Below are positions 383-24,406 of a stretch of 64,000 bases of DNA, piece by piece. The number at the start of each line of letters is the position of its first letter. The first letter of the stretch is position 1. This stretch comes from an uncultured Ignavibacteria bacterium (lineage in GTDB: Bacteria; Zixibacteria; MSB-5A5; CAIYYT01): NCBI GenBank assembly GCA_964537215.1, contig CAZIBI010000011.1:4517-68516 (forward strand), in the 5' to 3' direction. The translations under genes were made by a program, and so were the position numbers. The notes beneath the pieces were generated by a model. That model was not told the origin of the DNA, ran no database searches, and saw only the letters and a program-made list of their open reading frames with translations.

Positions 383-1231
383 ATGGCTTGCAACGATCCG
401 CGCTACCAATTCTTGCTGGCTGATGCCGCATTGGGCAAACTGTCGCCAGGCGAGATGTTCCAGCTTCAGAGCCACTTGCGCAGCTGTCAAACTTGCCGTG
501 AGAGCTTCAGGGCCGGCGCGATTTTGGCAGGAAAGGACCACGAAGATTTGACTAAGGAATTTGGCGGGCATCCATCAAACGACGAAATTACGCAATACTA
601 CTCGGAGCGCGCCGGCTTGGCGCCCGCCGTTTTGCAATCGATTGAATCGCATCTGGAACTGTGCGCCTTGTGCCGCGAAGAATTGCAATTGTTCGAGCAG
701 GTCGAGCAGGAAATGCTTGCGGCAGCTACGGCAGGACAGAAAACAGCCGGCAATGACGGCGGCTGGCAACACGCTAAGGCGATTGTCCTCCACCCGGTTT
801 TTGCTGCGGCGGTGCTTCTTGTCGTGGCGACGCCGCTGTATCTGATGTGGCGAGATCAAGCCAAACTTTCGGCGCCGATAGTTCCAGGCATACCAACTGC
901 GATAGAACTAAGAGAACCGAGCCGATCGGGCGGAAGCATACAGACTATCCTCAAGCGGCCCGATGGCAGCTATCTGCATCTCATTCTGCCCTATCCTTAT
1001 CAAGTCAGCACGCGTCACTATTTTGTGCAGCTTCACGGTGCCGAAGCAATGAGCGCGGAATCACCGCCGGTCTGGTTGAGATTTTCGCAAGCCGGTAAGA
1101 TCGATGCGTTGATTGGGGCCGCCAATCTCCCCGAAGGGCGGTATGAGCTTACAGTATTCGATGTCGGACGCGAGTTACTGCCCGATACTCTTACCACCTC
1201 ATTCATCTTTGATCTCAAAATTCGAGATTAG
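383..1231 (+). CDS. ZAS-type anti-sigma factor: two zf-HC2 motifs, one transmembrane helix and a periplasmic C-terminal domain
   Basis: There are two HxxxCxxC motifs (HLRSCQTC and HLELCALC). A hydrophobic helix (AIVLHPVFAAAVLLVVATPLYLMW) is followed by a roughly 130-aa C-terminal domain. The gene lies directly downstream of the ECF sigma gene. Confidence 0.6.
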   Translation: MACNDPRYQFLLADAALGKLSPGEMFQLQSHLRSCQTCRESFRAGAILAGKDHEDLTKEFGGHPSNDEITQYYSERAGLAPAVLQSIESHLELCALCREELQLFEQVEQEMLAAATAGQKTAGNDGGWQHAKAIVLHPVFAAAVLLVVATPLYLMWRDQAKLSAPIVPGIPTAIELREPSRSGGSIQTILKRPDGSYLHLILPYPYQVSTRHYFVQLHGAEAMSAESPPVWLRFSQAGKIDALIGAANLPEGRYELTVFDVGRELLPDTLTTSFIFDLKIRD

Positions 1232-1267
1232 CATTTTCAGCGCCAGCAAAGTTGTCGAACAACGCAA

Positions 1268-4200
1268 CTATCTTCCAACCACAATAAAGGCTCCCCACGA
1301 GTATGGATGCGGCGGCATATTTGCTTCGCGAAGTTCACGTAGCGTGGCAAGCTGCGCTTTTCGCACAGCCGATGCAAAACCTTCTTGAAGATTTGTGTAG
1401 AGTCGCTGCATTAGTCGTGCTGTTGATTGGTCGGGCACGTTCCAAAGCGTGCTTACGATGGTCTCGACTCCGGCCAGTTGGAATGCCCGGCGCAGACCAT
1501 AGACGCCCTCGCCATCGTTCACAGTCCCAAGACCCGACTCGCAAGCGGAGAGGACCACGCATTTCGTGCCATGTAAGTCCATCGCAGCGATTTCCTCGCC
1601 GGACAGAACTCCATCCTCCCCGACCAAGGCTGAATCCGCGGGCGCGAGCACTGCCGCTCCGGCTAATAGCAATCCAGATAGCAAAAGAGGATTTGCCGTC
1701 GTGACTTCTTCAAGAGCTTTTGGAAAACAATCATGTGAGAGAAAGTAGGCATGCGTTGCCAGGTGAATAATCTCGTTTCCGCTCGCCAGCCGTTTGAAAT
1801 TCTCCTCGGAAGCTGCGTCACCTACGAGAATATATACCGGCTGCGAATGCGCGGCTCGCCATATTCGAGCGGCGCTTTTTACCTCGCTGCGTGAGGCGAC
1901 CAATGGCGTCAATGATTCCCTCGGAATTCGACAATTTGCCAGTATGCCGCGCGCTACACTATTTTTATTAGAACCCGGTGCATATGAGGCAATCTCCGGA
2001 TTCGTGCTGGCGAAACGTTTCGACAGATCAGCAGTGAAATTCGGGTCGCCGAGCGCCAGCAATCCCGATTGGCGATTTGCAGGGGCAACATCTCGATTGA
2101 GATCGCGAATGCTGTTCAGGTAGGAAAATTGATATTGTTCGATCAGAAACGAATTCGTTGAAGTCGGGAGTGATCCAAACGAAAGCGAATTCAGCGCGCC
2201 GTCGGGAATGACAAACACCTGTCCCGAATCGGGCATGAACTTGCTCAAGGGCTGCCACACGCTGGCAGCTATTTTTTGACCGACCGCGAGGTAAACCAAT
2301 AGCGAATTTGAGTCAGCATCGCCGCCGGTTTCCGACATTGCGCTCATCTGCAAACCGACCCGTCCGATGGCGTCTTCGATTGGCTCTGCCGCGCCCAAGT
2401 TGATCGCCCGCAAAGATCCTCTGTTCGCGATGAACGCTGCATATTGCGATACTCTGCGAGTTGCTGAATAATATTTGACAAACTCAATGAGCGGCGAATT
2501 TTCGCGCAGTAAATTTATCGTTTTATCTTCGCTTAGAATTAGGGTGCCGGGGTCGTCGCCAATCTCGTATCCCAGATGCACCAGCGATTCTTCCAAGAAC
2601 AGTTTTCGAGCGGCAAGGCGCTTGAGTCGACGGTCGAATTTTGCAAAAGAGGAGTCCGCATCGTTTTCAATTTGCGCTCGCGCCAATTGAAGTGAAACAT
2701 CCCGCAACGAATCAAGCAATGGAGACACTCGTTTGTTATTCGAATTCATCAGGTGGGCGCGGTGCTCCAGCACAGATTCCGACACGATCGCCCTCCCGGA
2801 AAGAATCACGGCTGCAAACTCGTCGACAGCGACCGATTTGAGATCGATTCCGGATCTTTCGGGCTGCCGTCGCTGATCGTCATCGGCAAAGAGCGAAGAA
2901 ATGAATTTGTCGCGCAGTTTGTTAATTTCACCGGCAAAACGAGCCGCCTTCAATTCCGGCAATACCTGCACAGCATCCTGAAATCCTGCAAGAGCAATTT
3001 GGTAGGCTCTGGCAAAAGACCGCTGCGCTTCTTTTACTCGATTGCTCCGCAGCTGCAATTCGCCATAGCTGGATAGCAATTCACTCATTCGTGTGCTCTT
3101 GGTTATTTCAACTGATTCGGCAATCGCGATTGCGCGTTGATAAACTGTGTCCGATTGAACAAGATCGCCGCGATCGCGGAGATATTCGGCATGTTCGACC
3201 AAAGGTCGAATTAGGCGGAAGTTGCTCTCGCCATCCCGGCGGTTAACAATGTCTATTACGAGGCGCACCAGACTGTCGGCCTTGTCCAATTGACCTTCGG
3301 TCTTGTCGATTTCTGCGATTGTCATCAGCGCATCACTGTCGAGACTGTCGCCGCGAGCCCCAAGGATGGCAAGCGCCTTGTTCGCTTCAACATGTGCCAG
3401 CGGCAGTTTGCGTTGCTTGATATGCAGTTTGGCTAAGTCGAGATAACCGAATGCGACCTCCGGGTGGTCCGCACCCAGAAATTTGCGTTTGACTCGTAGA
3501 ACCCGATCCAGCATCTCTTCAGCATCGTCGCTTCGCCCCCACTCATCATATAGCACGGCAAGATTCTGAAGAATGCTCACCGTCGCGGCATCATTGGCGC
3601 CAAGTACAGTTTCACGAATGCCAAGCGCCCGTCGCCAATAGGTTTCCGCCTCGGCGGTCCTTCCCTGATCGAAGCAGACTTTACCCAGAGAATTGAAGCT
3701 TGAAGCGATATCCGGATGGTCCGGCGGCAGAGCCTTTCTGCGGATTTCCAGCGCTACGTTGTAAAGGGATTCGGCGCGCGCAAATTGTCCCATCTGGCGA
3801 TAGAGACCGGCAAGGTTTGACGTCAAGGAAGCGACCTCCTGATGCCCTTCGCCCTGGGTTTGCTTTCTCAATTTTATGCCAAGTGTAATCAGTTCTATGG
3901 CCCGCGAGTACTCGCCTTCGGAAGCAGCGACGCCGCCCAGCCGATCAATACTTCCTTGGCATTCGATATGCTCCAATGGTAAAGCAGCCAAGTTGATTTT
4001 GTACGCTTCGTTCCAATACTGAATCGCCCTCGCGCGATCACCACGTCGTACGTAGTAGTCGCCCAGCCGATTGAGAACATAGCCGACACTGGCATCCGCA
4101 GTTCCCAACCTGGTTCGCGCGATTTGCAACGCCTCCTCTCCGAGTTTGATGGCGGAATCCTGCTCGGCAAACCGACTCTGGACATTTGTAAGAAGAAATT

Positions 4201-4870
4201 TGGAGGCACCCTCGGCAAGATCCATCAGCGCGATGACAACAACCTTGGCATCTCCCCTTTGATTCGCCCGCCACTCTTGGGCGATTTGGGCATCGATGCG
4301 CCAGTTATCTTTGAAACGAAGTAGTCTGACATAGACTCCAACCAACTCGTGCAGATAGGTGAGGCGATTGACCAAAGATGCGTCTACTGAAGTGTCTGAT
4401 AGCGCAAGATTCTCCAGAGAGTCTGCACGCCGTTCGTCGCCTTGCTCCTCTGCCATAATCATCTGGCGCCAGGCGATTGCACGACGAAGCGCAACATTCG
4501 TTGGATGAATTTTCGCCGCGAATGCGGCTGCTGCCGACCAAGACGAGTCGGCTTGGGCGACGGAACTGTCCCGCATGTGATAATCGCCGAGACAGATGAG
4601 TATTGCGGCTCGCGCGCTATCAGCATCCGGCGCTTTCGGATTGACCAATGCATAGGCTTCCCACGCCAGTTGCTTAGCAGAATCGCTCGGCCATATTGCT
4701 CGCTGGCGGGCAAAGGAAATGTCGCACGACAAGCGCTCCGCCAGCGCGAGGCGCGACACCCAATCATTTTGCTCTGCGAGCGAAATAGCTGTAGATAGCA
4801 GAACCGTGATTAGTATGGCCAGACTGCGGGCCAAAACTCCTCCCAGTTTTATTGGTCGGTCAAAGATCAC
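1268..4870 (-). CDS. Secreted or exported TPR-repeat protein with C-terminal CHAT (caspase-like, clan CD) protease domain
   Basis: The N-terminus looks like a signal peptide or anchor (RSLAILITVLLSTAISLA). A long TPR-like helical repeat region follows. The C-terminus has CHAT hallmarks (HLATHAYF..., ...VVLSACESG...). The gene converges on the anti-sigma factor gene. Confidence 0.65.
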   Translation of the reverse strand: MIFDRPIKLGGVLARSLAILITVLLSTAISLAEQNDWVSRLALAERLSCDISFARQRAIWPSDSAKQLAWEAYALVNPKAPDADSARAAILICLGDYHMRDSSVAQADSSWSAAAAFAAKIHPTNVALRRAIAWRQMIMAEEQGDERRADSLENLALSDTSVDASLVNRLTYLHELVGVYVRLLRFKDNWRIDAQIAQEWRANQRGDAKVVVIALMDLAEGASKFLLTNVQSRFAEQDSAIKLGEEALQIARTRLGTADASVGYVLNRLGDYYVRRGDRARAIQYWNEAYKINLAALPLEHIECQGSIDRLGGVAASEGEYSRAIELITLGIKLRKQTQGEGHQEVASLTSNLAGLYRQMGQFARAESLYNVALEIRRKALPPDHPDIASSFNSLGKVCFDQGRTAEAETYWRRALGIRETVLGANDAATVSILQNLAVLYDEWGRSDDAEEMLDRVLRVKRKFLGADHPEVAFGYLDLAKLHIKQRKLPLAHVEANKALAILGARGDSLDSDALMTIAEIDKTEGQLDKADSLVRLVIDIVNRRDGESNFRLIRPLVEHAEYLRDRGDLVQSDTVYQRAIAIAESVEITKSTRMSELLSSYGELQLRSNRVKEAQRSFARAYQIALAGFQDAVQVLPELKAARFAGEINKLRDKFISSLFADDDQRRQPERSGIDLKSVAVDEFAAVILSGRAIVSESVLEHRAHLMNSNNKRVSPLLDSLRDVSLQLARAQIENDADSSFAKFDRRLKRLAARKLFLEESLVHLGYEIGDDPGTLILSEDKTINLLRENSPLIEFVKYYSATRRVSQYAAFIANRGSLRAINLGAAEPIEDAIGRVGLQMSAMSETGGDADSNSLLVYLAVGQKIAASVWQPLSKFMPDSGQVFVIPDGALNSLSFGSLPTSTNSFLIEQYQFSYLNSIRDLNRDVAPANRQSGLLALGDPNFTADLSKRFASTNPEIASYAPGSNKNSVARGILANCRIPRESLTPLVASRSEVKSAARIWRAAHSQPVYILVGDAASEENFKRLASGNEIIHLATHAYFLSHDCFPKALEEVTTANPLLLSGLLLAGAAVLAPADSALVGEDGVLSGEEIAAMDLHGTKCVVLSACESGLGTVNDGEGVYGLRRAFQLAGVETIVSTLWNVPDQSTARLMQRLYTNLQEGFASAVRKAQLATLRELREANMPPHPYSWGAFIVVGR

Positions 4871-7525: not shown

Positions 7526-8089
7526 TCATAGCACCGTCCGCGACAACCAGCCGTGGAGGTACCTGCGAAACTGTGAATTGTTGATTGCTAACTGCGTATA
7601 GAAGGCCCGCCGCAAATCCACCTGGCTCTCGGCGATCCAAGCGTAGTCTGACTTTGCCGCGGTCAATGCAGCAATCGTCTGATCGCCCATGACACCATCG
7701 ATCTTGACATCGATGCGCGACTGCGGACTTTTGTTGTGGACGTTTAACGCTGACTGCAAAAATATGACAGCCCGTTGGGCGCCGATATTCACAGCGGCGT
7801 CGAAAAGTTCGTTGGCTATTCGCTGGTGGATAATCTGGTTGCAGCGCAGTCGCTCCCAGATGTCGAGATAGAATGTCTCAACCTCGTCATTGATATCCGG
7901 GTCCAGCTCGAGCATGCGCGGGAAGCCGGGCCCCTTCTTCATCTCGTCGACCTTCACCCACCCCGGCCATTGTGGGTTGCGCTTGCGAGCAATGCCGCGA
8001 AACGTCTCGCCGCCTGGATCGGCGGGATCGATTGAATAGCCGCCCTCGTGCTTGGAAGTTTGCTCCCAAGCGTATTTGAATTCTGCCAT
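7526..8089 (-). CDS. Endolysin, glycoside hydrolase family 108 lysozyme domain with C-terminal peptidoglycan-binding domain
   Basis: The N-terminus carries the GH108 signature HEGGYSIDPADPGGETFRGI. The C-terminal part resembles PG_binding_3. Confidence 0.75.
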   Translation of the reverse strand: MAEFKYAWEQTSKHEGGYSIDPADPGGETFRGIARKRNPQWPGWVKVDEMKKGPGFPRMLELDPDINDEVETFYLDIWERLRCNQIIHQRIANELFDAAVNIGAQRAVIFLQSALNVHNKSPQSRIDVKIDGVMGDQTIAALTAAKSDYAWIAESQVDLRRAFYTQLAINNSQFRRYLHGWLSRTVL

Positions 8090-9136: not shown

Positions 9137-9520
9137 TTAGACTGTGGCCAGATTGGTAATCTTGAACCGTAGTTCATCGACAAAGGTCTTGGGCTCAGCG
9201 CCCGCAAGGACGACGGTCAAAGTTAGGACGTGCGTTTCCTCGCAGATCTCGGCTCCGCCGCTGTACACGATCACCGCATCAGCCGGAGTGAGCTCCAAGA
9301 GAAATTCTCCATCTTCATTGAAGCATTCGATCAAGTTCATTGCATTGCGACCGTTGACTGCTGCTGTAGGTTTTCCCTCGACCGTGATTTTTCCCGTCGC
9401 CGATGCGATCATCGAGCGGACGACGACGGTTCCATCCGAGGTTTTCAATTCCTGATCGAAATACAGGTCGAAGGAATTTCCCTCGCGGACTGAACCGGTT
9501 ACGTTGATCGGCATTGTCAT
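9137..9520 (-). CDS. Hypothetical protein (127 aa), coupled to the giant fibre gene by a 4-nt overlap
   Basis: ORF with a 4-nt overlap; possibly a fibre chaperone or assembly factor. Confidence 0.35.
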   Translation of the reverse strand: MTMPINVTGSVREGNSFDLYFDQELKTSDGTVVVRSMIASATGKITVEGKPTAAVNGRNAMNLIECFNEDGEFLLELTPADAVIVYSGGAEICEETHVLTLTVVLAGAEPKTFVDELRFKITNLATV

Positions 9521-12500
9521 TGCCTCCGAATTCGTGCTTTGATTAGTTCTGTGACTCGCGTAATGGCCGCATTGAGCGATGCGGATTTCATCGCAGCGCC
9601 GGACAGCTGCAGGGATTGCAACAGAACTTCCGTTAGCTCCGGCGTCCGCAACATTGCGCCGCCGAGCTCCGGCACAAACAGCCTGGCGTTGGCAATCGCC
9701 AGGACCGCCAGAAAGACGCCTATGTATTCAACTGGAAGTTGCGACTGTGCAATGATTCCGCGCAGGGCTTCGACCTCGAGCCGCGAACGCAGGCTGAAGG
9801 CGCGATTGAATTCAATGTGAGTTGTGATAGATCCCGACACCGGGCTGACAAAGTCAATCGACATGTGGCCCGTCGCGCCAATTCTCCCCATCCATTCCGC
9901 GAGAATACCCTGGGCGGCCGAAATTGCCTTGTTATGCTCGACGGCAAGCCGGTTGGAAGCCGCGAAGGCCTTGCCGGTCTCAACCAGAAGAGTTCCGCCG
10001 ACAACGTTAATCGTCGCACGCGATTCGATCGGCAACCGCGTGTTGGCCGCGACTGACGCTTTCCACTCAACCGGAATCGCGGAACTCATTGAGACGACCG
10101 TTGCGCCGGAGAATTCGAGCGGCAGCTTTGTCGCAAGAATCACTTGCAGCGCGTGCTCGATATTGGTTTTCAATACGCTTGTGACAATCGTGCCCGTATC
10201 GATTTGAAATTGGCTCTGCGCGGCAAGCTTACGCAGGAATTCGGTATTCATGCCAGCGATCACGCCCGCCAACGCCCGGCTTAATTCAACCGGAGCATTC
10301 AATCCGCCGGAAACAGACTTGAGCGATTCCGCCGGCAGCAACGCCGAAAGCGTCCGGACTGAAAGCGACTCGATCTCGACGCGGCCGCGGGCGTCGACCG
10401 AACTGCGCCATTCGACCGGCAGCTGCGCCGACACTTGGAAGTTCTGTGCTCCCAACCACTCGACGGCGATCTGTTGGGCAAAGGTGATCGTGGCCGCCAG
10501 CTCAACCGGAGCCTTCGCCATCGACAACCGCTGCATCAAGACTTCGACCAGTACACTGTTCGCCGCTTGAAGAGTGCGAAGGTGCTCGGTAAGTAGCCGC
10601 GTGACAATCTGCGTGCTGGCCAACCATTCGACCGCGGCTGCGCTTTTAACTATCAGAGATCCGGAGAAATCGACAGCGAGTTTTTGCCCGGCCGCAATCG
10701 CCCTGTTGGTCTCTACCGGGACGATGCCGCTAATCTGAACAGATCCCAGGAATTCGACCGGCAACGCGTGAGTCATCGCTACCTGAAATTGCCCTGTCCA
10801 CTCAACGGGAAGACTGACCGCGTTCGCGACGCTGCGCAGTGATTCGACCGGAACGATTTGCCCGGCAGCTACCAGCTTATTGATCTCCGCCGGCGACGTC
10901 ATCGCCGCAGCAAGTTGCCGCAGCGTTTCGACTGGAGCGACTAAGACCACTGCGAATCCGCCGCGCAGCTCGATTGGAAGTTGAACCGCGGCTGTTAAAC
11001 CGCGTGCGTTTTCGACCGCCATTCCTGCCGGCGTAACCAGGCTGTGCAGCAGATCCGCCGGCATCCCCGATATTGCGGACAGCGAGCGGACATAATCAAG
11101 CGGCAACGTGAAAAGAATCGCGACATTGCCCTTGTACTCTGCCGGCAGCATACTTCGCAATTCGATCCCTGCGAGTGAATCGACAGGAAGCGGCGTGCTC
11201 GCCTGCAGCGTGGAACGCCATTCGGAGAATATCTGCTGGGCAGTCGCCAATTGCTTGTTGGCTTCAACCGGCACGGCGATCTTCGCCTGGAGCGAGCCGG
11301 AGTATTCGTCGGGTAATTTTGTCGCGATCGCAATCGCCGCGAGGCTTTCCATATACTGCTTTAGCGACGCAACCAATGCTGCGCTGAATTCTACCGACAT
11401 TCCTGATCGTGCCTGCAATGAACCGCGCAACTCCGTTGGCAAAAGTGAGCGCGTCTGAAGTGCGCTATTATTCTCGGATGCCAGTACGGCCGTTGATCGC
11501 GTAAAGTATTTGTCCAGCTTCATGTCGATCGTGAATTGCTCGACGCCGGCGCCAAGTAGCGCGATATCGGTCGTGAAGCCCGCAACCTCTTCCGGCTGCA
11601 GATCGATGACCGGGTTGAGATCCCACCAGTAGATTTTGATTTCTTCGATTTCGGCGGTGACGTTTCCCGATGTCGTTACAGTGACCGCGTAATAATCCAC
11701 CTTGACCGAGTACTGACCCAGCGGCAAGCCCAGCGCCTTCAAATCAAATGAAACGGTTGTGCTCTGGAAGCTCGTGGTCAGATTCGTAATCGTGGCCGTC
11801 GAGTTGGCAACAGCTTTCGTCGCATCGTAGGTTGCGCCGCTGGAGACCCACACGTGGAAGCTGGCACTGGAACCGGCCGAGCTCGAGGTCAGCTTCGCGC
11901 GAATCTTGACGTCGAGTTTCCAAACGTCATTCTGCGCCATTTCGTGCTTGCCGTCTTGCGTCGCTTCGTAGGTGGCTGTGTGATCCGTGCTGTAAGAAAT
12001 TGTGTTATCGGTGAAGCTCGATGTCACCGTTGTCGTTTGCCGCTTGTCCTTCTTGCGCTTGACGATGATCTGATCGAAGTACGATCCTTGATCCGCCTTC
12101 AATTTCCATTTCGTCGCATTCGCGATTGAACTTGTGATTTCATCGGCAATCTTGGTACCGCCAAACCAGGCAGAGCAGCCAACGGAAGTGATCTGCAGGG
12201 CGACTTGATACATCTGGCTCTCGAGCGCGTGCAAGCTGCTGTCGTGCCACCCGGTGGAATCTTCGTACTGCGCATAGCTCACGTCGCGATTGATACCGAC
12301 CGACAACACGGCCGCGGCCGCATTGACCAGCTGCAAATAAGTCCGCAGGTACAGCTCATCCATCCAGAGAGCGCAACTAACGATGATATCATCGAGCGCC
12401 GAAGCTAAACTCTTCTCGAGCGCGAAGGTGCCACCCGGAGCGGTTTTCAGCGACCGCGAACCGGTGGCTGTCTTGTTCGGATGATTCGGAGGGCTGACGT

Positions 12501-15474
12501 AAACGGATCCGCTACTCGAGGTCACGGTCATGCCGCGCACGCCATTGACATTCGCTCCGTCCGCGAGCGTCTCAAAGTTCTCATACCCGAGAGGATAGAC
12601 AATCGTCGGATCCGACTTCGGATTGGTCGCGATATCGGGAGCGCCGTAATAGACGTAGAGATCCTTAGCGCCGGCCTTCTTTCCGGCCGACAACGCTTCC
12701 GGTGCCCGGAAAGAGACTATCGTCTCTTCATAGTTGGCGTAATCGATCACGCGGTCCAGCTCGGTCGTGCCCCAATAGACGCGTAGGTCCTTTACGTCGC
12801 GGCGAATCTTCCCATAGGGCGAGGCCGTGAGCTGGAAGACGTCGTTGCCCGATGTCCACATCAGATCAATGCGGTTGTTGGTCAGGCTGTGCTTGATGTT
12901 AAGTATCGGGACGCCAATAGATGAATTGCCGGTAAGGCTCCGTTTTGCCCAGGTTGCACCCGCGTCGTTCGAGAGCAGCTCGATAATCTCAGACGAATAG
13001 CTCTCGTCATCGGATGCTTCGACGAATTCGACAAGGCGATTAACCCGGCTAACTCTGATCGACGCGCCGGCGGTGAGCTGCTTGAATCCAAACTCGACCG
13101 TCTCTGCGGCAGCTTTGGTCCAGGCTGCCGAGGTCGACGGGTTCGTCGTCCAGATATATATTTTCTCGCCATAGGCAGTGTTGGTCAAGACCAGGTCCGG
13201 GCTCTGATAATCCGTGCTCGAGATCCGCAAGATCGCCCGCAGGTCCGGCGTGCCGGAGACCTTCTTCGCAGCGATCGCGACACCGACACCGATGATCAGC
13301 ACATCCGAAGGCAGCGTTGCCGACTTGGTAAAGGAGGCCTCGCAGGTGGACGACGCATGGAGATAAGTATCGTCGGCGTCATAACGTTGAATGCCGTCGT
13401 CGACCAGCGCGTAGTTGACTGACCCGGTCGAGCGTGAAATGTTTGTATGAAAGCCGTCGGCGGCCGGAATGTGATGCTTGTATGCGCGCGAGTCGGCAAC
13501 AGTATAGCAGTGAATCGTGCCGTCCTTGTCGCAGATTGCCGGGCTGCCGCAACGTCCCATCCGGATATTGAAATCCAGATCTTCGGTCATATAGGTGTGC
13601 TGCCAGGCGCCGCTTGCATAGCGCGAGCTGCCAAGGCCACCATCACCATCTGGAGCCCCGAAATCTGGGGCGTAAGCCCACAATACCACCGGCTTATTGT
13701 CGCGCGTCAATGTCAGGTGCCGACAAAAGAAGCTGACGCGATTCCCCGTTTCGTTTTCAATCACTGCGCCAGCGCTGGCTTTGTTGATTCCGGTGCCGGT
13801 TGTACCGCACTGGATTCCAGCGATCGTTCGCCAGGTTGCAAAGCCTCCGGAGCCGCCTTCGTTGTAGTCGCTGTATGCGTACCAGACGCCGAGGGCAATA
13901 TTTGATCCTCCGACGAATGACCAGGCGATGTGAATGCGCTCATTCTTGTCGAGGCGCAAGCCATACATGTAAGTTCGATAAGAGCCGACGTCGTTGTAAT
14001 TGATGATCTCCTGCTCGGAGCTCCAGCTCTCCCCTACCGTGTCGGAATAGTAGAGCACGACCTTGGTCGCCGCGTCGGTTGGTCCCTTGCGCGCGAACAT
14101 GTAAATGCGATTCGAAGAAGGCACCACGATCGCGATCGGATAAGTGTTCTGCGATCCGAGCGTGCCTTTGAGCGTCCAGCCGGTTTCGCCGGCAAAAGCG
14201 CCGGACTGATTTGGTGAGACCGACTTTGCGTAATAGGTCGCCGTGTAATGACAGCCATAGAAGACGTGCAGGTAGCCGGTGTTGTCGATCGTGATCGTCG
14301 GATAGTAGTGGGTGTCAGTGCCTGTGTGCGCGTTATCGATCTTATAGGGCGTGCCCCACTTGTTGGTCACATAGTCATAGCTCTGGATGTAAATACCGAG
14401 ATAGAAATCGCTCTCGAGCTGGCCGAGATAGACGACGTGCTTCTTGGTGCCGAACTCCGCGACCGCATATCCGCTTTCCTGGATCGCTTCATTGTAAGCG
14501 CCGTTGGTTGCAATCTTGTACCGGTTGCCGGTCTTGATTTTGAACTCGTGCGTGTAGTCATCGGTGCATCCGGAGTGCTTCGTATTGAACAGCATCTTGC
14601 GGCGGAAACAATATTTCTCATCCGCCCAAATCCGGTTGATACCTTTGAATTGCGCGTAAGCGCTGTAGTCCGATTCAATCGCCGACCCGTCTTTGAACTT
14701 GATGCGCCAGTAGTACCAGCCATTCGGCGGATCAGATGACAGCTCGCTGCCGTTGTAATCGATCAGCTGGCAGCGGTTGCCGTGCGAAATATCAGTGATA
14801 TCAATCCAGCCCGAGTCCCACACCGTCGAAGCGAAATTAGAAACCGTCGAGACCTGAACATAAGCATGCGTCGCTGTTCCCGATCCGGCAGTGGCATTCC
14901 ACTGCGCCGAGAAGACGGGATCTTCCGAAGCGTCGGTCGGCTGCGACTGGCGCTCGCACTCGAGGTTTGTTGGCGACGGGTGATTCGCGAGGGTGTAATC
15001 GACAACGATCCACACCTGCGTAACTTCCGGATGTTCGCCGGCGACGCCGCGGGCCCGGCACTTGACTCCAGCTTGCAGCGAATCGATATCGCTCGCCGAC
15101 CAGCTACCACCGCCCGGTCGCGAGACCACTTGAGAGTATTCGGCCCAGGATGTCGTAATCGAGAACTGGCTGCCTTCGACCGTCGTGCCGCCGAGGCGCA
15201 GGATCGGGATTACCTGGTTGTTGGTCGAAGTTCCAACCTTGCGGCAGCGAACATAGACCGTGACCGAATTGACAGCGCCATACGCGCCCGCATGATTCTC
15301 CAGCGCATAGCTGTCGGTCAGGTAACTGGTGCCGGTCGTGAAGACGTAAGTCGTGGCATCATCAGCCGACGACTCCGCTACGCACTCCCAGTTGGTTAAG
15401 AGGAGTTCAGGATCTTGTGGCGTCAGCGCGGTGAGGTCACCGGCACCGTTCGGGCGTAAGAGTTCTGTTGACAC
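9517..15474 (-). CDS. Giant (1985 aa) tail fibre or host-specificity protein: N-terminal Ig/FN3-like and beta-propeller-like regions, then about 40 tandem degenerate 18-aa repeats (LPVEW-type) at the C-terminus
   Basis: A single uninterrupted ORF. Its C-terminal ~700 aa are periodic (...SLPVEWTGQFQVAMTHALPVEFLGSVQISGIVPVETNRAIAAGQKLAVDF...). At DNA level the CCGGTCGAA-type unit recurs about every 54 nt. Confidence 0.6.
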   Translation of the reverse strand: MSTELLRPNGAGDLTALTPQDPELLLTNWECVAESSADDATTYVFTTGTSYLTDSYALENHAGAYGAVNSVTVYVRCRKVGTSTNNQVIPILRLGGTTVEGSQFSITTSWAEYSQVVSRPGGGSWSASDIDSLQAGVKCRARGVAGEHPEVTQVWIVVDYTLANHPSPTNLECERQSQPTDASEDPVFSAQWNATAGSGTATHAYVQVSTVSNFASTVWDSGWIDITDISHGNRCQLIDYNGSELSSDPPNGWYYWRIKFKDGSAIESDYSAYAQFKGINRIWADEKYCFRRKMLFNTKHSGCTDDYTHEFKIKTGNRYKIATNGAYNEAIQESGYAVAEFGTKKHVVYLGQLESDFYLGIYIQSYDYVTNKWGTPYKIDNAHTGTDTHYYPTITIDNTGYLHVFYGCHYTATYYAKSVSPNQSGAFAGETGWTLKGTLGSQNTYPIAIVVPSSNRIYMFARKGPTDAATKVVLYYSDTVGESWSSEQEIINYNDVGSYRTYMYGLRLDKNERIHIAWSFVGGSNIALGVWYAYSDYNEGGSGGFATWRTIAGIQCGTTGTGINKASAGAVIENETGNRVSFFCRHLTLTRDNKPVVLWAYAPDFGAPDGDGGLGSSRYASGAWQHTYMTEDLDFNIRMGRCGSPAICDKDGTIHCYTVADSRAYKHHIPAADGFHTNISRSTGSVNYALVDDGIQRYDADDTYLHASSTCEASFTKSATLPSDVLIIGVGVAIAAKKVSGTPDLRAILRISSTDYQSPDLVLTNTAYGEKIYIWTTNPSTSAAWTKAAAETVEFGFKQLTAGASIRVSRVNRLVEFVEASDDESYSSEIIELLSNDAGATWAKRSLTGNSSIGVPILNIKHSLTNNRIDLMWTSGNDVFQLTASPYGKIRRDVKDLRVYWGTTELDRVIDYANYEETIVSFRAPEALSAGKKAGAKDLYVYYGAPDIATNPKSDPTIVYPLGYENFETLADGANVNGVRGMTVTSSSGSVYVSPPNHPNKTATGSRSLKTAPGGTFALEKSLASALDDIIVSCALWMDELYLRTYLQLVNAAAAVLSVGINRDVSYAQYEDSTGWHDSSLHALESQMYQVALQITSVGCSAWFGGTKIADEITSSIANATKWKLKADQGSYFDQIIVKRKKDKRQTTTVTSSFTDNTISYSTDHTATYEATQDGKHEMAQNDVWKLDVKIRAKLTSSSAGSSASFHVWVSSGATYDATKAVANSTATITNLTTSFQSTTVSFDLKALGLPLGQYSVKVDYYAVTVTTSGNVTAEIEEIKIYWWDLNPVIDLQPEEVAGFTTDIALLGAGVEQFTIDMKLDKYFTRSTAVLASENNSALQTRSLLPTELRGSLQARSGMSVEFSAALVASLKQYMESLAAIAIATKLPDEYSGSLQAKIAVPVEANKQLATAQQIFSEWRSTLQASTPLPVDSLAGIELRSMLPAEYKGNVAILFTLPLDYVRSLSAISGMPADLLHSLVTPAGMAVENARGLTAAVQLPIELRGGFAVVLVAPVETLRQLAAAMTSPAEINKLVAAGQIVPVESLRSVANAVSLPVEWTGQFQVAMTHALPVEFLGSVQISGIVPVETNRAIAAGQKLAVDFSGSLIVKSAAAVEWLASTQIVTRLLTEHLRTLQAANSVLVEVLMQRLSMAKAPVELAATITFAQQIAVEWLGAQNFQVSAQLPVEWRSSVDARGRVEIESLSVRTLSALLPAESLKSVSGGLNAPVELSRALAGVIAGMNTEFLRKLAAQSQFQIDTGTIVTSVLKTNIEHALQVILATKLPLEFSGATVVSMSSAIPVEWKASVAANTRLPIESRATINVVGGTLLVETGKAFAASNRLAVEHNKAISAAQGILAEWMGRIGATGHMSIDFVSPVSGSITTHIEFNRAFSLRSRLEVEALRGIIAQSQLPVEYIGVFLAVLAIANARLFVPELGGAMLRTPELTEVLLQSLQLSGAAMKSASLNAAITRVTELIKARIRRQ
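9520..11500 (-). repeat. Tandem degenerate ~54-nt coding repeats (about 40 copies) inside the giant fibre gene
   Basis: Recurrent ttcgaccgg / ctcaaccgg / ctcgattgg motifs at regular spacing, matching the P[VI]E[WF] periodicity in the protein. Confidence 0.6.
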
Positions 15475-17499: not shown

Positions 17500-18723
17500 T
17501 CACACCCAGGCGACGGCAACGTCGATGGGCACAAATTGCGGAATGATCTTGGCTAAGTACTCTCTCTTGGCGGTCTCGAATTGCGGCGACCCGGAGAGTG
17601 TGATTGTCAATGTCTTGTCTGCCTGTCCGGCAGCGAAGAACTTCGGCTGCTTGCGCCGGTCCAGCACGCGCAGGATGTAGTTGTCAAATTCGACATCGGT
17701 GCCGAAGGCGCAGAACAGTCCCTTCTTGTTAGCTGCCACCAGCGCGGCATAGTTCTGTTCATAGATCAAAGTCGTCTCATCGAGTATGACGGTGATCTTT
17801 TCGCCGGTATCCCAGATCGTGATTCGATGCGTTCCGGTTCGCCAGGTTGTGCCGGTGATGTCGACGACGTGAATTGGAATCCACGTACCGCTGAAGACGT
17901 AGACCGTCAAGCTCTCAGCCGAGCCGCTCTTGTCGAGCGTCACTAAAAGTGCCTTCGTCGCGCTCTCATATCTGGCCACAGCACCAAACCAGCAATCGCC
18001 GGTTGTCAGCAGCCGGTACTCAAATTGCAGATTGTAATCCGAGGTCGTCTCCGGGAATGTCGCCGACATCGTCGGCGCCAAGGTTCCGCTCAAGGCTGAG
18101 CCGCGCAAGCTTTGCGCAATCGCTTTGAAATTGCCCAGCGCCTCATTCGTCCAGCCTTCCATCGAACCAGAATCCCACGAGTGCGAGACTTCCTTTGACG
18201 TCACTGCCAGACGCGACCAAAATTTGTGCCGGTTGAAGCGGCCGGAAATCTGATACTCCATATCCATTAGCGCCGTGAAGCCCAAATCCTCGATGATGCG
18301 CTTCACGGACCAAAACGTCCCGCGACGCTTGAGGATCGTGAATGCATCGCGCACTAAGCGCCGACGCTCGCGTTCAGTGGCGTACGGCAAATCGATCAAC
18401 TCGAATCCGAAGTTGGCCGCCAGATGCGACAGAAACCGCTGGTCACAGCGCTCATAGTCGCCGAGATACTGGAGCTCGCGCGCGCGGTCGTACATGGTGT
18501 TGAGCATGTCATTGAGCGGTCCGGCAAATTCGACCATGCCCGGCGATTTCTGGCAACCCGGCAAAAAGTCGAGAATGTCAATCGCTTGCGGCTTGATGCG
18601 CGTTTCCGGAAAAGGGCGCACGCCGCGGTGGTCAACCGGACCGCCGCCGATACCGGCCGGAAACTGCGGATTGAAGTCAAAAAAACCGCCGGGAGTCGGC
18701 GAGACATTGTGATCTAAAACCAA
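17500..18723 (-). CDS. Baseplate protein, P2 gpI-like N-terminal region with an extended C-terminus (407 aa)
   Basis: The N-terminal ~150 aa resemble the tail protein I family (...RRLVRDAFTILKRRGTFWSVKRIIEDLGF). The gene sits in the baseplate region. Confidence 0.4.
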   Translation of the reverse strand: MVLDHNVSPTPGGFFDFNPQFPAGIGGGPVDHRGVRPFPETRIKPQAIDILDFLPGCQKSPGMVEFAGPLNDMLNTMYDRARELQYLGDYERCDQRFLSHLAANFGFELIDLPYATERERRRLVRDAFTILKRRGTFWSVKRIIEDLGFTALMDMEYQISGRFNRHKFWSRLAVTSKEVSHSWDSGSMEGWTNEALGNFKAIAQSLRGSALSGTLAPTMSATFPETTSDYNLQFEYRLLTTGDCWFGAVARYESATKALLVTLDKSGSAESLTVYVFSGTWIPIHVVDITGTTWRTGTHRITIWDTGEKITVILDETTLIYEQNYAALVAANKKGLFCAFGTDVEFDNYILRVLDRRKQPKFFAAGQADKTLTITLSGSPQFETAKREYLAKIIPQFVPIDVAVAWV

Positions 18724-20314: not shown

Positions 20315-23300
20315 TTAGTCGATTTGTCTTTTCTTCTTGCGCAGAACAGTGCTGGGCTGCTCGCCGGATTGGAAAGTGAAGTTGAGAGTCGTTGGCTGGT
20401 TGATCGTGAACTGCTGCTGTTGCTCGACGAAGTTGTGCGTCACCTTTATCGTGTAGGGATTGTACAAGGCGCGGTCCGAGTTCTGGTTATAGGTCGTCGT
20501 CTTGGCCGAGTCACGGAATTCATCCAAGATCGTGATCAGTTGACCGGAAACTCCCGTAACGCCGGAATAGACCAGCGAGTCGAGCGCATTGCGGATCTCC
20601 ACGTTCGTGCCGGAAAGCGGCGCGGCCGTTTCGTTGCGGCTATTGATCGTCGCCGTCCACGAGATAAACCATTCGGTGCCGTCATTCGGCGTGGTGAGGA
20701 AATTATAAGCGCCGAACATCATCGTGCGCTCGAACGCCGAATCGGCCTCGGCGTCGCCGTAGCGATTGTCGATGAATCGCAAATCGCGGGACGACAGATA
20801 CGTGTTCTCGCCGTTCTTGGCCTTGCGCCAGTTCGGGGCGGTCAGCGTATCCTTGAAATCGAAAAAATTATCGCGGAATTCGAGGCCAACCGAGTTGACA
20901 CCAACGCCGCGCAGCAAGAGTCCATTGGAGATAAAATTGTTGTGCCGCATTTCCATGAAGTCGACGCCCGCCTGGTAGCTCCAGCTCGGGTAGTAAAGCT
21001 GCAGCGCCGATCCCGTCACCGTTCCGGTCGAGAAGCCTCGGAAAGTATTGTCGTGGATGAACCACTTGAAACTGCCGGAGCGCGTAATCCGGATGCCGTC
21101 GACGGCCGGCGCACTCGGATTGATCGCCAGCGCCGTCGCGTAATTGTTGCGCAGAGAACAAATCGGCGCGCCCTCGATCTGGATACCGTAAGCGAGATTC
21201 CCGTAGCCATATTCCTGCGAGTACTGGTAGGACTCGACAGAAATGATGTTGCCCTCGACAATCGACCACTGCATCGAATCCGGATCAACTGCCTTGGTGG
21301 TTATATGGATGCCGGTGCCGTGGTAGGTCCCGGTGCCGAAGACCTTGTTGTAACGAATGATGCTCGCAGCATTGCCATAATCTTCAATCGCGAATCCGTT
21401 TGTGAGTACTGTCTTGGGGTAGAATTCGCAATTCTGAACGATGTTGCGCGGGTATTGGAGTATCCCGTCACCTGTCACGTCGCGCTTCGTGGTTACATAG
21501 ACGCCCTGGTAGGGATAATTATAGAAGCGGCAATGATCAATGACAGAACTATATCCATAGCCTCCCTTGTCGGCTCGCAGATTCACCCCGACCGAAGGCA
21601 CCGCCTCGCGCTTGGTGTAATGGAATGACAGCGGATTATCCGGGAAGGTGACATCGGTCGAATCGACATTCCAGCGAATAGCGTTCCAGGTGAAAATGCC
21701 ATTGGGATTTGAACCCTTCGGGAAGATCGTCGCCTTCTTGATCGTGACATCCGAGCAAGTATAGGAGCCGTAAATACCGACGCTGAACAGCGACGGCTGA
21801 ACCGGCTCAATGCGGAGATCTCTGATGATCGTCCCCTCGCCAACACCGCCGGCGACGCCGAGTCCCCAAAACTCGCGGTTGCTCGCTGTCGTGCCGTAAC
21901 AAGTGCCACCATCGACAGCCATCGTATCGCCCGCGGCATCGTGATAGCGCTGCGCGTTCATCATGTCGAGCACGAGCGAACAGGTGTCCGGTTCAAGCGC
22001 GACGCCGAACGATCGGAACGTCGTATGCAGAACATGATCGAAGTAGACTTGATCGGAGCTTGCAGCTGTGCTGCCGCCGGTAATCTGAATGAAAATCTTG
22101 TAACTCTCCACCGAATTGCCGGTCATGAAATGCACCCAAACCGGTTCGGAACCCCGCTCCATCGTACCAGTGTTGTTCGTCGCGGAATAAGCGGTATCGC
22201 CGCCTGCGGTTAGTAGTCCCATCGTCACGCGGACGTTGGTGTTGGCTGTGTTCAGATACGCCATTTCGATCGCGTGATGAGTCTTCGGTGCAAAATTGTA
22301 GAATGCCGCGCTCTTGACCGTCTGCGTTGTGCAAGGGAGCTGTACTCGCAGTGCATAGCCGCCATCCCAAACCGACGGTTCATCGCTGCCCTCCAGGACA
22401 ACTTCATAGTGACCGGACCTGCGCGTAATCGCCGGCGCATCGCTGAAGTCCCAATTCACAGCCCGGGTCGGATCGGTGTCGGGAGTCTCAAAGGAATTGT
22501 TAGCGATGTTGTTCAGCGCAACGGAGTCTGGCGCCAGCTTATAACCATTGCCGAGGATGATCACGGGCGTCTGAATAACCAGTCCCCACTTCTTATTGCG
22601 GCAATAAACATTCTCGATGAAATTGAGCGTGTCGCCTGAGGCGAATCCATTCGCCGTATTGACAAGCCCGCCGTAATTGTCATGCCACATCTGCCCGATA
22701 TCGTGCCACTTGGGACTGTGCGAAGGCGCGGCCGGCTGCCAGGCACCATAGTAGGTGTGTGGCTTCCCGCCGTAAGTGAAGTTCATTTGCGCCGGAGCGG
22801 TTGGTCGGCCGAAGTTTCGATTCTCCGGATCGGTCAGAAGCGGATCGACGTTCGGGGTACTGTGAGCATCGAGCCCGCAAGCCTGCCATTGCGTCCAGTT
22901 CGTGCTATTGGAATTGCAGTAGCCGATGAACGACGTCGCGGGGTCAAAGTACATGTTGCTGTCAATACTGATGAATTCCTGCGGCTGATGACCATTCCAG
23001 GAAACCAGTCGCATCCAATTGTCATATTGATTCGATGCGTGCAGATAATCGTACATTAGGTTGTACTTGACGACGGTGCCGCTCCCGGAGATAGCCTCCT
23101 GCGCCCCAAACAGGGCATTGCACTTATAGGCTGTATTGTTGCAGATGAAATTGCCGCCGCGAGCATATCCGGTTGAATCCGTCGCGCTGGCGCCGGAAAG
23201 TTGTATGAACGTGGTTGGTAGCTTATAGCCGATGTTTGTGTATGCCGAGCAGGCTTCCGCCTTCTCTCCGATCCAGATCCCATATTCCCTTTGCCCAATG

Positions 23301-24406
23301 CAAGTGCAGTTGCGCACGACATTGCCGACCGCATGATGGCCAAAGTCCGGATAGTTACCCATCTTGAGGCTGACGCCGGCCGCAAAGACCGTTGAGTCGA
23401 AATAACAGCCGTCGATGACCGTCTCTCTTGTCGCGTAAAGTGCAATCCCCGATCCACCATGAGGCGTCACTGCCGTGCCGCTCAAATCGCCGCGCACGTG
23501 CCACAAAGAACAGTTCAATATTTCATTGAATTGCGACCACGAGGAAAGTGCGGAGCCGTAGGTCGCTCCGTGGAAGATTGCCGCGGGATTGGAGTATTTG
23601 AAATTTGATGAATACTTCAGATTACATTGTTCGATTCGCCAGTTATCGCCCCCGCCACCATCGGATGTTCCCTGCGCAATCAGGTAATGGCCAAGATAGA
23701 TATTCAGCCCGTAGATCGTGACATAGTCGCAGGTCTCACTGCGACTGCTGAATACTTCCTGGACTGCTGCCATGTAAGTTAAGGTGTTCGGATTGACGCG
23801 CGTGGACGGCCAGATATATAAAGTGTCGGTGATGGCCTGATAGTAGAAAGTCCCAGGGCCGTTCATCCAGACAGATGTATCCTGCGCGAGCTGCGATCCA
23901 TAGATAGAATACTCGCCGCTGTTGAGCACACGGCACGGCCGCATGAGAACATTCGTGCCCTCGATGACGCAAGTCACAACGTCCGTGCGGCTATACCAGG
24001 CGTTTCTGGCTGAGGCTGTCGGCGCGTACACCTTCTTCCACTTCCAATTCGAACCGCTCGAATCAAAGCAGACCCACGAAGCGCCGCCAACGACTTCGCC
24101 GCCCCAGAGGGTTGTGCGGTAGGCGGAACCAACAGTAAAGGTCGAGCAGGCATAGACGGTTCGGTCTGTTGCCGAAGTGCCACCCGACGGTACATTGATG
24201 CGAACATTGTACCAGTTGCCGGTACCGAAAAGGACGGTATCACCGGCAACAACAGTCGAATTGATCTTTGTATGCGTCGCCCAAGCCGTCGCCCAAGACG
24301 TTCCATTGTTGGCATCACTGCCGCCGATTGCGACGTAATAGGTCAGCGCGTTTGCTGTCACCGACCAAAGCAGCAGCAGGGCCAGTAGCCCGATGATTCT
24401 CTTCAT
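20315..24406 (-). CDS. Signal-peptide-bearing right-handed parallel beta-helix (pectate-lyase fold) protein, 1363 aa; putative tailspike, depolymerase or secreted polysaccharide lyase
   Basis: The N-terminus MKRIIGLLALLLLWSVTANA precedes the beta-helix entry motif LTYYVAIGGSDANNGTSWATAW. The body is a long N/G/T/Y-rich repetitive region typical of beta-helix carbohydrate-active proteins. Confidence 0.5.
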   Translation of the reverse strand: MKRIIGLLALLLLWSVTANALTYYVAIGGSDANNGTSWATAWATHTKINSTVVAGDTVLFGTGNWYNVRINVPSGGTSATDRTVYACSTFTVGSAYRTTLWGGEVVGGASWVCFDSSGSNWKWKKVYAPTASARNAWYSRTDVVTCVIEGTNVLMRPCRVLNSGEYSIYGSQLAQDTSVWMNGPGTFYYQAITDTLYIWPSTRVNPNTLTYMAAVQEVFSSRSETCDYVTIYGLNIYLGHYLIAQGTSDGGGGDNWRIEQCNLKYSSNFKYSNPAAIFHGATYGSALSSWSQFNEILNCSLWHVRGDLSGTAVTPHGGSGIALYATRETVIDGCYFDSTVFAAGVSLKMGNYPDFGHHAVGNVVRNCTCIGQREYGIWIGEKAEACSAYTNIGYKLPTTFIQLSGASATDSTGYARGGNFICNNTAYKCNALFGAQEAISGSGTVVKYNLMYDYLHASNQYDNWMRLVSWNGHQPQEFISIDSNMYFDPATSFIGYCNSNSTNWTQWQACGLDAHSTPNVDPLLTDPENRNFGRPTAPAQMNFTYGGKPHTYYGAWQPAAPSHSPKWHDIGQMWHDNYGGLVNTANGFASGDTLNFIENVYCRNKKWGLVIQTPVIILGNGYKLAPDSVALNNIANNSFETPDTDPTRAVNWDFSDAPAITRRSGHYEVVLEGSDEPSVWDGGYALRVQLPCTTQTVKSAAFYNFAPKTHHAIEMAYLNTANTNVRVTMGLLTAGGDTAYSATNNTGTMERGSEPVWVHFMTGNSVESYKIFIQITGGSTAASSDQVYFDHVLHTTFRSFGVALEPDTCSLVLDMMNAQRYHDAAGDTMAVDGGTCYGTTASNREFWGLGVAGGVGEGTIIRDLRIEPVQPSLFSVGIYGSYTCSDVTIKKATIFPKGSNPNGIFTWNAIRWNVDSTDVTFPDNPLSFHYTKREAVPSVGVNLRADKGGYGYSSVIDHCRFYNYPYQGVYVTTKRDVTGDGILQYPRNIVQNCEFYPKTVLTNGFAIEDYGNAASIIRYNKVFGTGTYHGTGIHITTKAVDPDSMQWSIVEGNIISVESYQYSQEYGYGNLAYGIQIEGAPICSLRNNYATALAINPSAPAVDGIRITRSGSFKWFIHDNTFRGFSTGTVTGSALQLYYPSWSYQAGVDFMEMRHNNFISNGLLLRGVGVNSVGLEFRDNFFDFKDTLTAPNWRKAKNGENTYLSSRDLRFIDNRYGDAEADSAFERTMMFGAYNFLTTPNDGTEWFISWTATINSRNETAAPLSGTNVEIRNALDSLVYSGVTGVSGQLITILDEFRDSAKTTTYNQNSDRALYNPYTIKVTHNFVEQQQQFTINQPTTLNFTFQSGEQPSTVLRKKKRQID

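Follow-up and report, generated by a model that had tools for sequence, protein, structure and literature searches.

The 64,000-nucleotide stretch of DNA analysed here (the window; contig CAZIBI010000011.1 of an uncultured Ignavibacteria bacterium, positions 4,517 to 68,516) carries, among the structural genes of a contractile-tailed phage, an open reading frame (ORF) for a 1985-residue tail-fibre-type protein whose C-terminal ~30% is a tandem array of a 14-residue repeat with an L-P-V-E-W/F core. The kind of protein is known; its P-x-E-W repeat is a fibre-repeat family not described before. We think it reasonably probable that in a temperate phage with a contractile tail the protein serves as a large fibre or side appendage, in which a β-structured shaft of ~42 units and fixed length would act as a spacer between the virion and modules that recognise glycans.

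The period of the array was determined by autocorrelation of residues 1344–1925, scored with BLOSUM62 and compared with 1000 shuffles. Peaks were obtained at lags 14, 28, 42, 56 and 70, with z-scores of 11.4, 10.0 and 9.0 at the first three. A first-pass annotation of the same DNA, made from the letters alone, had described an 18-residue unit mirrored by a ~54-nt periodicity; its tandem L-P-V-E-W/F units, their number (~40 copies) and their place in the C-terminal ~30% stand, but the unit is 14 residues long, not 18. The z-scores at multiples of 18 were 0.6 (lag 18), 1.6 (lag 36) and -0.2 (lag 54). At the DNA level self-identity was 0.346 at a lag of 42 nt, whereas at 54 nt (0.271) it did not rise above the background of 0.276. 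Likewise, the plus-strand motif TTCGACCGG, the reverse complement of CCG-GTC-GAA (Pro-Val-Glu), recurs at spacings that are exact multiples of 42 in 8 of 12 cases and multiples of 54 in none. The 18-residue, 54-nt period was thus rejected.

In the window protein the unit has the consensus x-L-P-V-E-[WF]-L-[GR]-S-[LV]-A-A-A-x. Scoring recognised 37–39 units, and ~42 are obtained from the length of the array. Most units are exactly 14 residues long, with a few of 15–16 (e.g. at residues 1554, 1668 and 1783). Ala, Leu and Glu abound in the array, and its glycine (~6%) is concentrated at unit positions 8–9. A six-frame profile scan of the window found the repeat solely in the fibre gene (nt 9703–11484). 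Tandem Repeats Finder, run on the DNA, did not report the array, the repeat being visible at the protein level only, and the longest direct DNA repeats within it are 14–35 nt long with 60–93% identity.

The 16-residue units, of the form P-V-E-W-x-G-x-x-x-V (residues 1554, 1668, 1783 and 1912), recur every ~114–129 residues and are conserved in the alignment of orthologues (relatives are given by our protein and locus numbers, P and L). In P0007 autocorrelation is highest at a lag of ~115, a signal that P0033 also shows, and P0016 peaks at 126. This recurrence suggests an ancient super-repeat of ~8 units. In the window protein itself the signal is weak, and a ~114-residue super-repeat was rejected there, lag 115 being strong only in P0007 and P0033.

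No model in Pfam, PHROGs or NCBIfam covers residues 1300–1985 of the window protein or the arrays of its relatives. Searches of Protein Data Bank (PDB) sequences with the whole protein and, at E<=10, with 3-unit and 8-unit profiles matched no natural protein through the repeat; the sole matches of the profiles were helical bundles or filaments of de novo design (8ub3, E=1e-7; 6nyk, E=0.13), which were rejected as homologues and are matched through heptad-like composition. No match came from the 50,697 phage records, whether searched by megablast with the gene or by tblastn with the repeat region, and a search of viral contigs and genome contigs for related loci found no relatives. A literature search on the motif, on 14-residue phage repeats and on the phage BUCT552 found no description of the repeat. 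The earlier view that it belongs to no named fibre-repeat family thus agrees with the databases and the literature; known fibre repeats, for example of the collagen-like or T4 gp34 type, were examined and gave no match.

Relatives were recovered from much larger protein collections. When 5.8 billion clusters were searched by word index with the array, two proteins were returned, in both of which the 14-residue unit follows unrelated N-terminal domains; the same search with an 8-unit alignment returned nothing at E<=1e-5. An exhaustive hidden Markov model (HMM) search of 1.84 billion representatives with the 3-unit profile gave 231 clusters at E<=1e-3, with 92 at E<=1e-10 and 18 at E<=1e-30. 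Seventy of the family's proteins were examined. The best internal period was 14 or 28 in all 70, and in several members the 28-residue period is as strong as or stronger than that of 14. Copy number extends from ~6 to ~65 units, and most of these proteins have the array close to the C-terminal end, with a short tail (mostly 30–65 residues) behind it. The family logo, compiled from 2446 units, reads [TAQS]-[ILV]-P-[VILA]-E-[WYFSH]-L-[GA]-[GSA]-[LVI]-x-x-[DSA]-x, with Pro3 in 65% of units and Glu or Asp at position 5 in 91%. The N-terminal partners include Laminin_G_3 (13 of 60) as well as DUF4082, fn3, DUF2341, BNR_2 and Gly_rich_2, which by their domain matches are typical phage receptor-binding modules.

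Among the genomic contexts examined, the repeat is found in phage tail modules. Four high-scoring relatives, P0002, P0003, P0005 and P0006, are encoded in tail modules of GP4/SU10-like podophages (loci L001, L006, L004 and L005, respectively), on contigs with P22-type portal or phage cement/minor-capsid genes followed by an adaptor gene. The repeat gene lies one to seven genes upstream of the gene for the Gp77 fibre-tail adaptor. Since the window module specifies a contractile tail, the repeat module is therefore common to phages of different tail types. The tails that follow the arrays in these four proteins contain a Trp-rich mini-repeat, W-x-A-[DE], spaced at ~9–12 residues and often accompanied by Cys.

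The fold of the unit was examined through its averaged hydrophobicity, whose harmonic power is 183 at period 2.0, 83 at 2.8, 52 at 7 and 23 at 3.5. Glycine and proline together make up 66% of residues at unit position 3 and 23–26% at positions 8–9. The period-2.0 hydrophobicity together with this placing of Gly/Pro constitutes a strand-turn-strand signature. AlphaFold modelling of residues 1300–1985 with a 10-orthologue alignment gave an uninformative model, with several helices and a mean predicted local distance difference test (pLDDT) of 39.7, whereas 8-unit segments modelled with a 66-row in-register alignment gave strands only and no helix. The weak neighbours that a fold search returned for this strand-only model are all β-solenoids (ice-binding proteins, bactofilin, CsgA and FapC).

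The array is likely a β-structured fibrous shaft, so that the extended shaft proposed in the first-pass annotation finds its best reading as one of β type, on the period-2.0 hydrophobicity and the strand-only, low-confidence model. Most likely, each unit would consist of a short strand at positions 2–7 with alternating hydrophobic residues (L/V/W), a turn at Gly/Ser8–9, a second short strand at positions 10–12 and a second turn running from around Asp/Ser13 to Pro3. Stacking of such units would produce a thin, rigid and probably oligomeric shaft, with a length that depends on how many units it has: ~20 nm at 0.48 nm per unit, as in a β-solenoid, or ~55 nm at ~1.3 nm per unit, as in a triple β-spiral. 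By reasonable analogy with other fibres the array may be trimeric and β-spiral-like; the failed prediction as a monomer (pLDDT 39.7) would be as expected for an intertwined oligomer. The 60-residue tail that follows the array would probably hold the chains in register, dock the shaft, or both.

Several observations weigh against this model. The strand-only prediction has a mean pLDDT of 55.7 (29 to 56 over the five models) and a predicted template modelling (TM) score of 0.40, and its fold search found no significant neighbour (best E=0.39, TM<0.3). Fourteen residues are two heptads, and the repeat profile weakly matches designed helical bundles. The evidence on which end of the protein is attached is conflicting. 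In addition, the β-propeller in the N-terminal part, which probably recognises glycans, also matches NCBIfam NF052497 (BT3686-type rhamnosidase; E=2.5e-8), though at 33 bits against a cut-off of 700.

Phage fibres are usually anchored by the N-terminus and bind the receptor with the C-terminus, and the remark in the first-pass annotation that a long C-terminal repeat is atypical was a fair one. As a refinement of the β-shaft model, we entertain tentatively that the polarity is reversed, so that the stalk next to the virion would consist of the C-terminal tail and the array, with the N-terminal lectin or enzyme modules at the distal end, in contact with the host. The relative P0118, whose ORF was recovered in separate ENA and JGI assemblies, carries the Pfam Gp77 fibre-tail adaptor domain (E=1.9e-17) at residues 928–1007, directly after its array, and in GP4 the Gp77-type adaptor encircles the head-tail adaptor and keeps three sets of fibres in place (PMC11445570). 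Moreover, the four podophage repeat proteins share only the array and the Trp-rich tails (E 1e-4 to 1e-6), their N-terminal 300–540 residues being at most marginally similar (best E=0.001), while P0008 and P0018 look N-terminally shorter and keep array and tail. The receptor-binding type of the N-terminal partners across the family is also in keeping with such a layout. However, the P0118 fusion is a single case, and P0008 and P0018 could be truncated gene calls. The tail protein of BUCT552 has a Phage-tail_3 domain of tail-tip type at residues 689–820 and a probably related array at the extreme C-terminus, which would place that array distally. Among orthologues of the window protein the N-terminal domain is as conserved as the tail, and in P0158 divergence has affected the C-terminal region (23.5% identity), the N-terminus remaining 49% identical. 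P0027 was considered as a second C-terminal Gp77 fusion and rejected, being without Pfam support.

A more far-reaching proposal, which we regard as doubtful, is that the 14-residue repeat forms a viral fibre shaft of a new structural class, one whose fold has no counterpart in the PDB and which is used in myo-, podo- and possibly siphophages. It would maybe have reversed polarity, with anchoring by Gp77-type adaptors in the podophages and interchangeable N-terminal heads facing outward.

The array could also be a monomeric two-sheet β-solenoid with one coil per 14 or 28 residues, of the curli, bactofilin or antifreeze type, although we consider this unlikely. The β periodicity and two turns per unit would suit a solenoid, the weak fold neighbours all belong to this class, and so would the 28-residue period that equals or exceeds that of 14 in several family members. 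However, every fold match was non-significant (E>=0.39, TM<0.3), and monomeric solenoids are usually predicted confidently by AlphaFold, whereas the pLDDT here was 40–56. Furthermore, the 4–5 large hydrophobic residues per 14 (L/I2, V4, W6, L7 and L10) would be hard to bury in a coil of this small size without an oligomer interface.

An α-helical array, whether built as a trimeric coiled coil punctuated by Pro or as a helix-turn-helix supercoil of the kind in the phi29 head-fibre stem, appears distinctly improbable. It would account for a period of exactly two heptads, for the Ala/Leu/Glu-rich composition, for the several helices of the first AlphaFold model and for the designed helical proteins as the only PDB matches of the profile. 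The harmonic at period 3.5 is nevertheless weak in comparison with that at 2.0, and because Pro3 is present in 65% of units and Gly/Pro is frequent at positions 8–9, no uninterrupted helix of more than ~5 residues fits the unit. Some relatives have Gly-Pro or Pro inside the unit as well. The AlphaFold model from the deeper alignment contains no helix, and neither phi29 gp8.5 nor natural coiled-coil fibres were matched in the PDB sequence searches.

The length of the array was compared among relatives by global alignment of residues 1276–1985. P0152, P0014 and P0155 are 48–49% identical to the window protein over the full length, and P0153, P0154, P0156 and P0157 are ~125–150 residues shorter, with 54–55% identity over the N-terminal part in P0153, P0154 and P0157. 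The length difference of this shorter group corresponds to a missing non-repeat domain of ~135 residues just upstream of the array, not to repeat units. No indel was found within the array against P0153, P0154 and P0157 (47–49% identity), a single 14-residue unit at its N-terminal edge differs in P0152 and P0014, and P0156 differs only by a 20-residue deletion in the tail. Single units, including the irregular ones of 15–16 residues, are positionally conserved in the orthologues. Larger indels appear in distant orthologues and are mostly whole units (28, 14 and 14 residues against P0033; 28 residues against P0116), and full-length orthologues have arrays of ~26–57 units. Copy number in related prophages, the point on which the first-pass annotation had suggested that a variable module be checked, is therefore stable in close relatives and differs by whole units at deeper divergence.

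Since close relatives lack internal indels and the changes at greater distance involve whole units, the length of the array is constrained and the unit is the quantum of change. This suggests a length-constrained, rigid spacer whose length changes slowly over evolution rather than being rapidly variable. That the array is instead a cassette expanding and contracting by slippage or recombination, with effects on fibre length and host range, as had first been supposed, is very improbable: the spread of copy number across the family and among full-length orthologues, the 14- or 28-residue indels between distant orthologues and the ~115-residue super-period of P0007 and P0033, which indicates past block duplications, would agree with it, but at 47–50% identity there is no array-internal indel and at most one unit at the N-terminal edge, each unit keeps its position among orthologues, the length differences of close relatives come from the ~135-residue domain, and the DNA copies, not reported by Tandem Repeats Finder, are too diverged to offer a substrate for slippage or recombination.

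In P0158, the N-terminal part that is 49% identical to the window protein spans 1140 residues, and the C-terminal region has far fewer recognisable units. In this one lineage the whole C-terminal part seems to have been replaced mosaic-fashion or to have diverged rapidly, which suggests that such replacement occurs occasionally.

The positions of the array and of the other features of the gene and its surroundings are listed in Table 1.

Table 1. Features of the repeat-containing fibre gene, of the ORF that overlaps it and of the BUCT552 gene used for comparison. Positions are those of the window unless a locus is named.
Feature	Residues	Nucleotides	Strand	Basis or remark
Whole ORF, 1985-aa tail-fibre-type protein		9517..15474	minus	GTG start; stop codon 9517-9519
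N-terminal domain (phrog_2448)	6-140	15055..15459	minus	PHROGs E=9.2e-17
Ig-like domain	168-277	14644..14973	minus	Pfam PF25788 E=1.3e-4, 22.6 bits (cut-off 27.4)
BNR_4-type β-propeller	367-631	13582..14376	minus	PF15892 E=4.2e-21, 76 bits (cut-off 27.3)
Second domain (phrog_6368)	713-798	13081..13338	minus	PHROGs E=1e-15, two stretches
Optional ~135-aa domain, just upstream of array	~1141-1275	11650..12054	minus	BLAST HSPs (high-scoring segment pairs) break at 1140 and 1276
Array, ~42 units of 14-residue repeat	~1330-1925	9700..11487	minus	autocorrelation, in-register layout
60-aa non-repeat C-terminal tail	1926-1985	9520..9699	minus	after array
127-aa ORF		9137..9520	minus	ATG overlaps fibre stop codon (ATGA); conserved
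BUCT552 1476-aa tail protein QVW27843.1		L009 8831-13261 (MW978786.1)	minus	'putative tail protein', Casjensviridae, cultured Aeromonas siphophage

The first ~1300 residues of the protein would form a string of globular modules: a duplicated domain, an Ig-like domain, a propeller and further β-rich domains. The domains matched by phrog_2448 and phrog_6368 (residues 6–140 and ~665–800) are apparently of the same type and so present twice. The shorter relative P0018 aligns from residue 665, the second copy, and starts with Met, and residues 4–139 match hypothetical proteins of Brevundimonas jumbo phages by tblastn. The Ig-like match is weak and is to the N-terminal Ig domain of Rha78A; PF25788 is also precomputed on the relatives P0152 and P0166. 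Among PDB chains the propeller matches the PL25 ulvan lyase 5uam (E=0.0023) and, weakly, a neuraminidase-annotated chain, and one relative is named 'BNR-4 repeat-containing protein' at NCBI. The propeller is probably a glycan-binding or glycan-cleaving domain, putatively directed at surface polysaccharide. The optional domain upstream of the array is present in P0152, P0014 and P0155 as well as in the window protein, and cleanly absent in P0153, P0154, P0156 and P0157, an indel of cassette type.

The tail begins with the hydrophobic stretch IGVFLAVLAIANARL, and the remainder is probably helical (helices are predicted with low confidence). It is conserved only among full-length orthologues (by BLAST, 52% in P0014 and 41% in P0033, among others), with the consensus ..IxNARLxxPGLxGA...

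From ~7.5 kb onward nearly all genes of the window lie on the minus strand and form the structural module of a contractile tail. The order begins with a head protease and capsid-type proteins, followed by sheath (32943-34661), tape measure (28996-31227), a baseplate wedge/Baseplate_J-like protein (24423-25934), a 1363-residue protein (20315-24406) and Tail_P2_I (17500-18723). Three small ORFs of no assigned function come next, then the fibre gene, the 127-residue ORF, a 334-residue ORF and a GH108 endolysin (7526-8089), so that the fibre gene stands between the baseplate genes and the endolysin. The 1985-residue ORF is as first annotated, from its GTG start to its stop; the identical protein is the NCBI record P0151, and an upstream ORF ending at 15475 directly abuts the start. 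The gene order around it is equally found around the orthologues P0014 (L003) and P0154 (L010); beyond the module, L010 carries an integrase, then genes of sigma-factor-like and TPR-CHAT type. On this synteny, with integrase and host genes present in L010, the element is by its sequence a prophage or temperate myovirus-type phage with the protein in the classical tail-fibre position, and the label of fibre protein given to it earlier holds.

The overlap of the 127-residue ORF with the fibre stop codon suggests translational coupling. Orthologues of this ORF occupy the same position in L003 and L010, with 56–73% identity, and no Pfam or PHROG model matches it. It is a candidate fibre partner or assembly factor; as a Gp77-type fibre-tail adaptor it was rejected, with an hhalign probability of 0.3% and no Pfam match.

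Genes of host type lie to the left of the prophage (383-4870), namely one for a zf-HC2 protein (383-1231) and, on the minus strand, one for a 1200-residue protein with TPR and CHAT domains (1268-4870). In L010 (21677-25577) the related prophage is likewise flanked by a TPR/CHAT gene, beyond the integrase, which suggests a conserved integration neighbourhood. The 1363-residue protein, also encoded on the minus strand, has a borderline match to a right-handed β-helix at residues 955–1125 and is possibly a tailspike-like depolymerase; its orthologues in the syntenic loci have 1348 residues in L003 and 1762 in L010, where the ORF runs off the end of the locus.

Few fibre-shaft folds are known (triple β-spiral, triple β-helix, coiled coil, collagen-like and the helix-turn-helix supercoil of phi29), and each has been used as a scaffold for engineering receptor-binding proteins and nanomaterials. 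The present repeat is very regular and quantised in length, with neither a curated family nor a PDB entry, and so offers a clean target for structure determination. If the C-terminus is the anchored end, such proteins would be natural platforms for receptor binding in which the N-terminal head is swapped, of use for retargeting phages and tailocins. An annotation gap would also be filled, as the names that relatives bear at present are 'hypothetical', 'putative tail protein' or 'BNR-4 repeat-containing protein'. With 231 clusters among 1.84 billion proteins the family is rare; its function is read from context, and another fibrous fibre repeat is in itself unsurprising.

The array differs from collagen-like phage fibre repeats, as it shows no Gly-X-Y triplet periodicity and no collagen-like Pfam family matches the protein, and from Phage_fiber repeats of the T4 gp34/gp37 type, as no fibre-repeat model of Pfam, PHROGs or NCBIfam matches it. 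Supercoils of the phi29 gp8.5 type and coiled-coil fibres are likewise set apart, by the weak period-3.5 harmonic and by PDB searches in which no natural helical fibre was matched.

The BUCT552 protein listed in Table 1 offers a parallel in period, its C-terminal end being a run of ~20 tandem units, each exactly 14 residues long (LLAPYNLRSTVQAE). It scores 45.8 bits against the 8-unit profile, and Glu5, Leu7 and the turn position align with its unit, x-V-Q-A-E-L-L-A-P-Y-N-L-R-S. In contrast to the window array, its units are nearly identical, which suggests recent amplification, the Pro is at position 9 and not 3, Trp is absent, almost nothing follows the array, and the protein, which has a Phage-tail_3 domain, is of the siphovirus tail-tip type. 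The two arrays are probably related at a distance, as judged from one profile score that repetition inflates. A tblastn match to BUCT552 was an artefact, falling on the antisense strand of the annotated gene, where the antisense frame also reads as a 14-residue repeat (RPVPWIAGCTGPAA).

The fibres of GP4/SU10-like podophages resemble the window protein in that the best-scoring relatives (P0002, P0003, P0005 and P0006) are encoded in such tail modules and that P0118 has the Gp77 adaptor domain fused at its C-terminus. Unlike them, the window phage is contractile-tailed and has no detectable Gp77 homologue; none of the GP4 chains deposited in the PDB matches the repeat profile. In its N-terminal part only, the protein distantly resembles the propellers of GH145 α-L-rhamnosidase and PL25 ulvan lyase, and more clearly those of BNR_4 type, with PF15892 well above its cut-off and weak matches to PL25 and to the BT3686-type rhamnosidase, but here the propeller is embedded in a 1985-residue phage structural protein.

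The remaining comparison is with the triple β-spiral. The adenovirus unit reportedly has alternating hydrophobic residues, a Pro at its start and a Gly-rich turn in the middle. In the adenovirus shaft the repeat is hydrophobic and 15 residues long, and the number of repeats sets the length of the shaft (PMC7248032); outside adenovirus the fold has been seen in reovirus sigma1, avian reovirus sigmaC and P5 of phage PRD1 (PMC2588538). The present array differs in its period, which is 14 with no signal at 15, and in the near-invariant Glu/Asp and frequent aromatic residue, found in the present unit only. Moreover, it lies C-terminal to the globular domains and is followed by just a 60-residue tail rather than a globular knob, and no adenovirus, reovirus or PRD1 chain was found by the 3-unit and 8-unit profiles among all PDB sequences at E<=10. 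The two are alike in several ways: both are short tandem repeats, of 14 and 15 residues, in viral attachment fibres; the unit here would likewise combine an alternating hydrophobic strand, a Pro near its start, a Gly/Pro turn and a second short strand; and in both the number of repeats, which differs between relatives, would set the length of the shaft.

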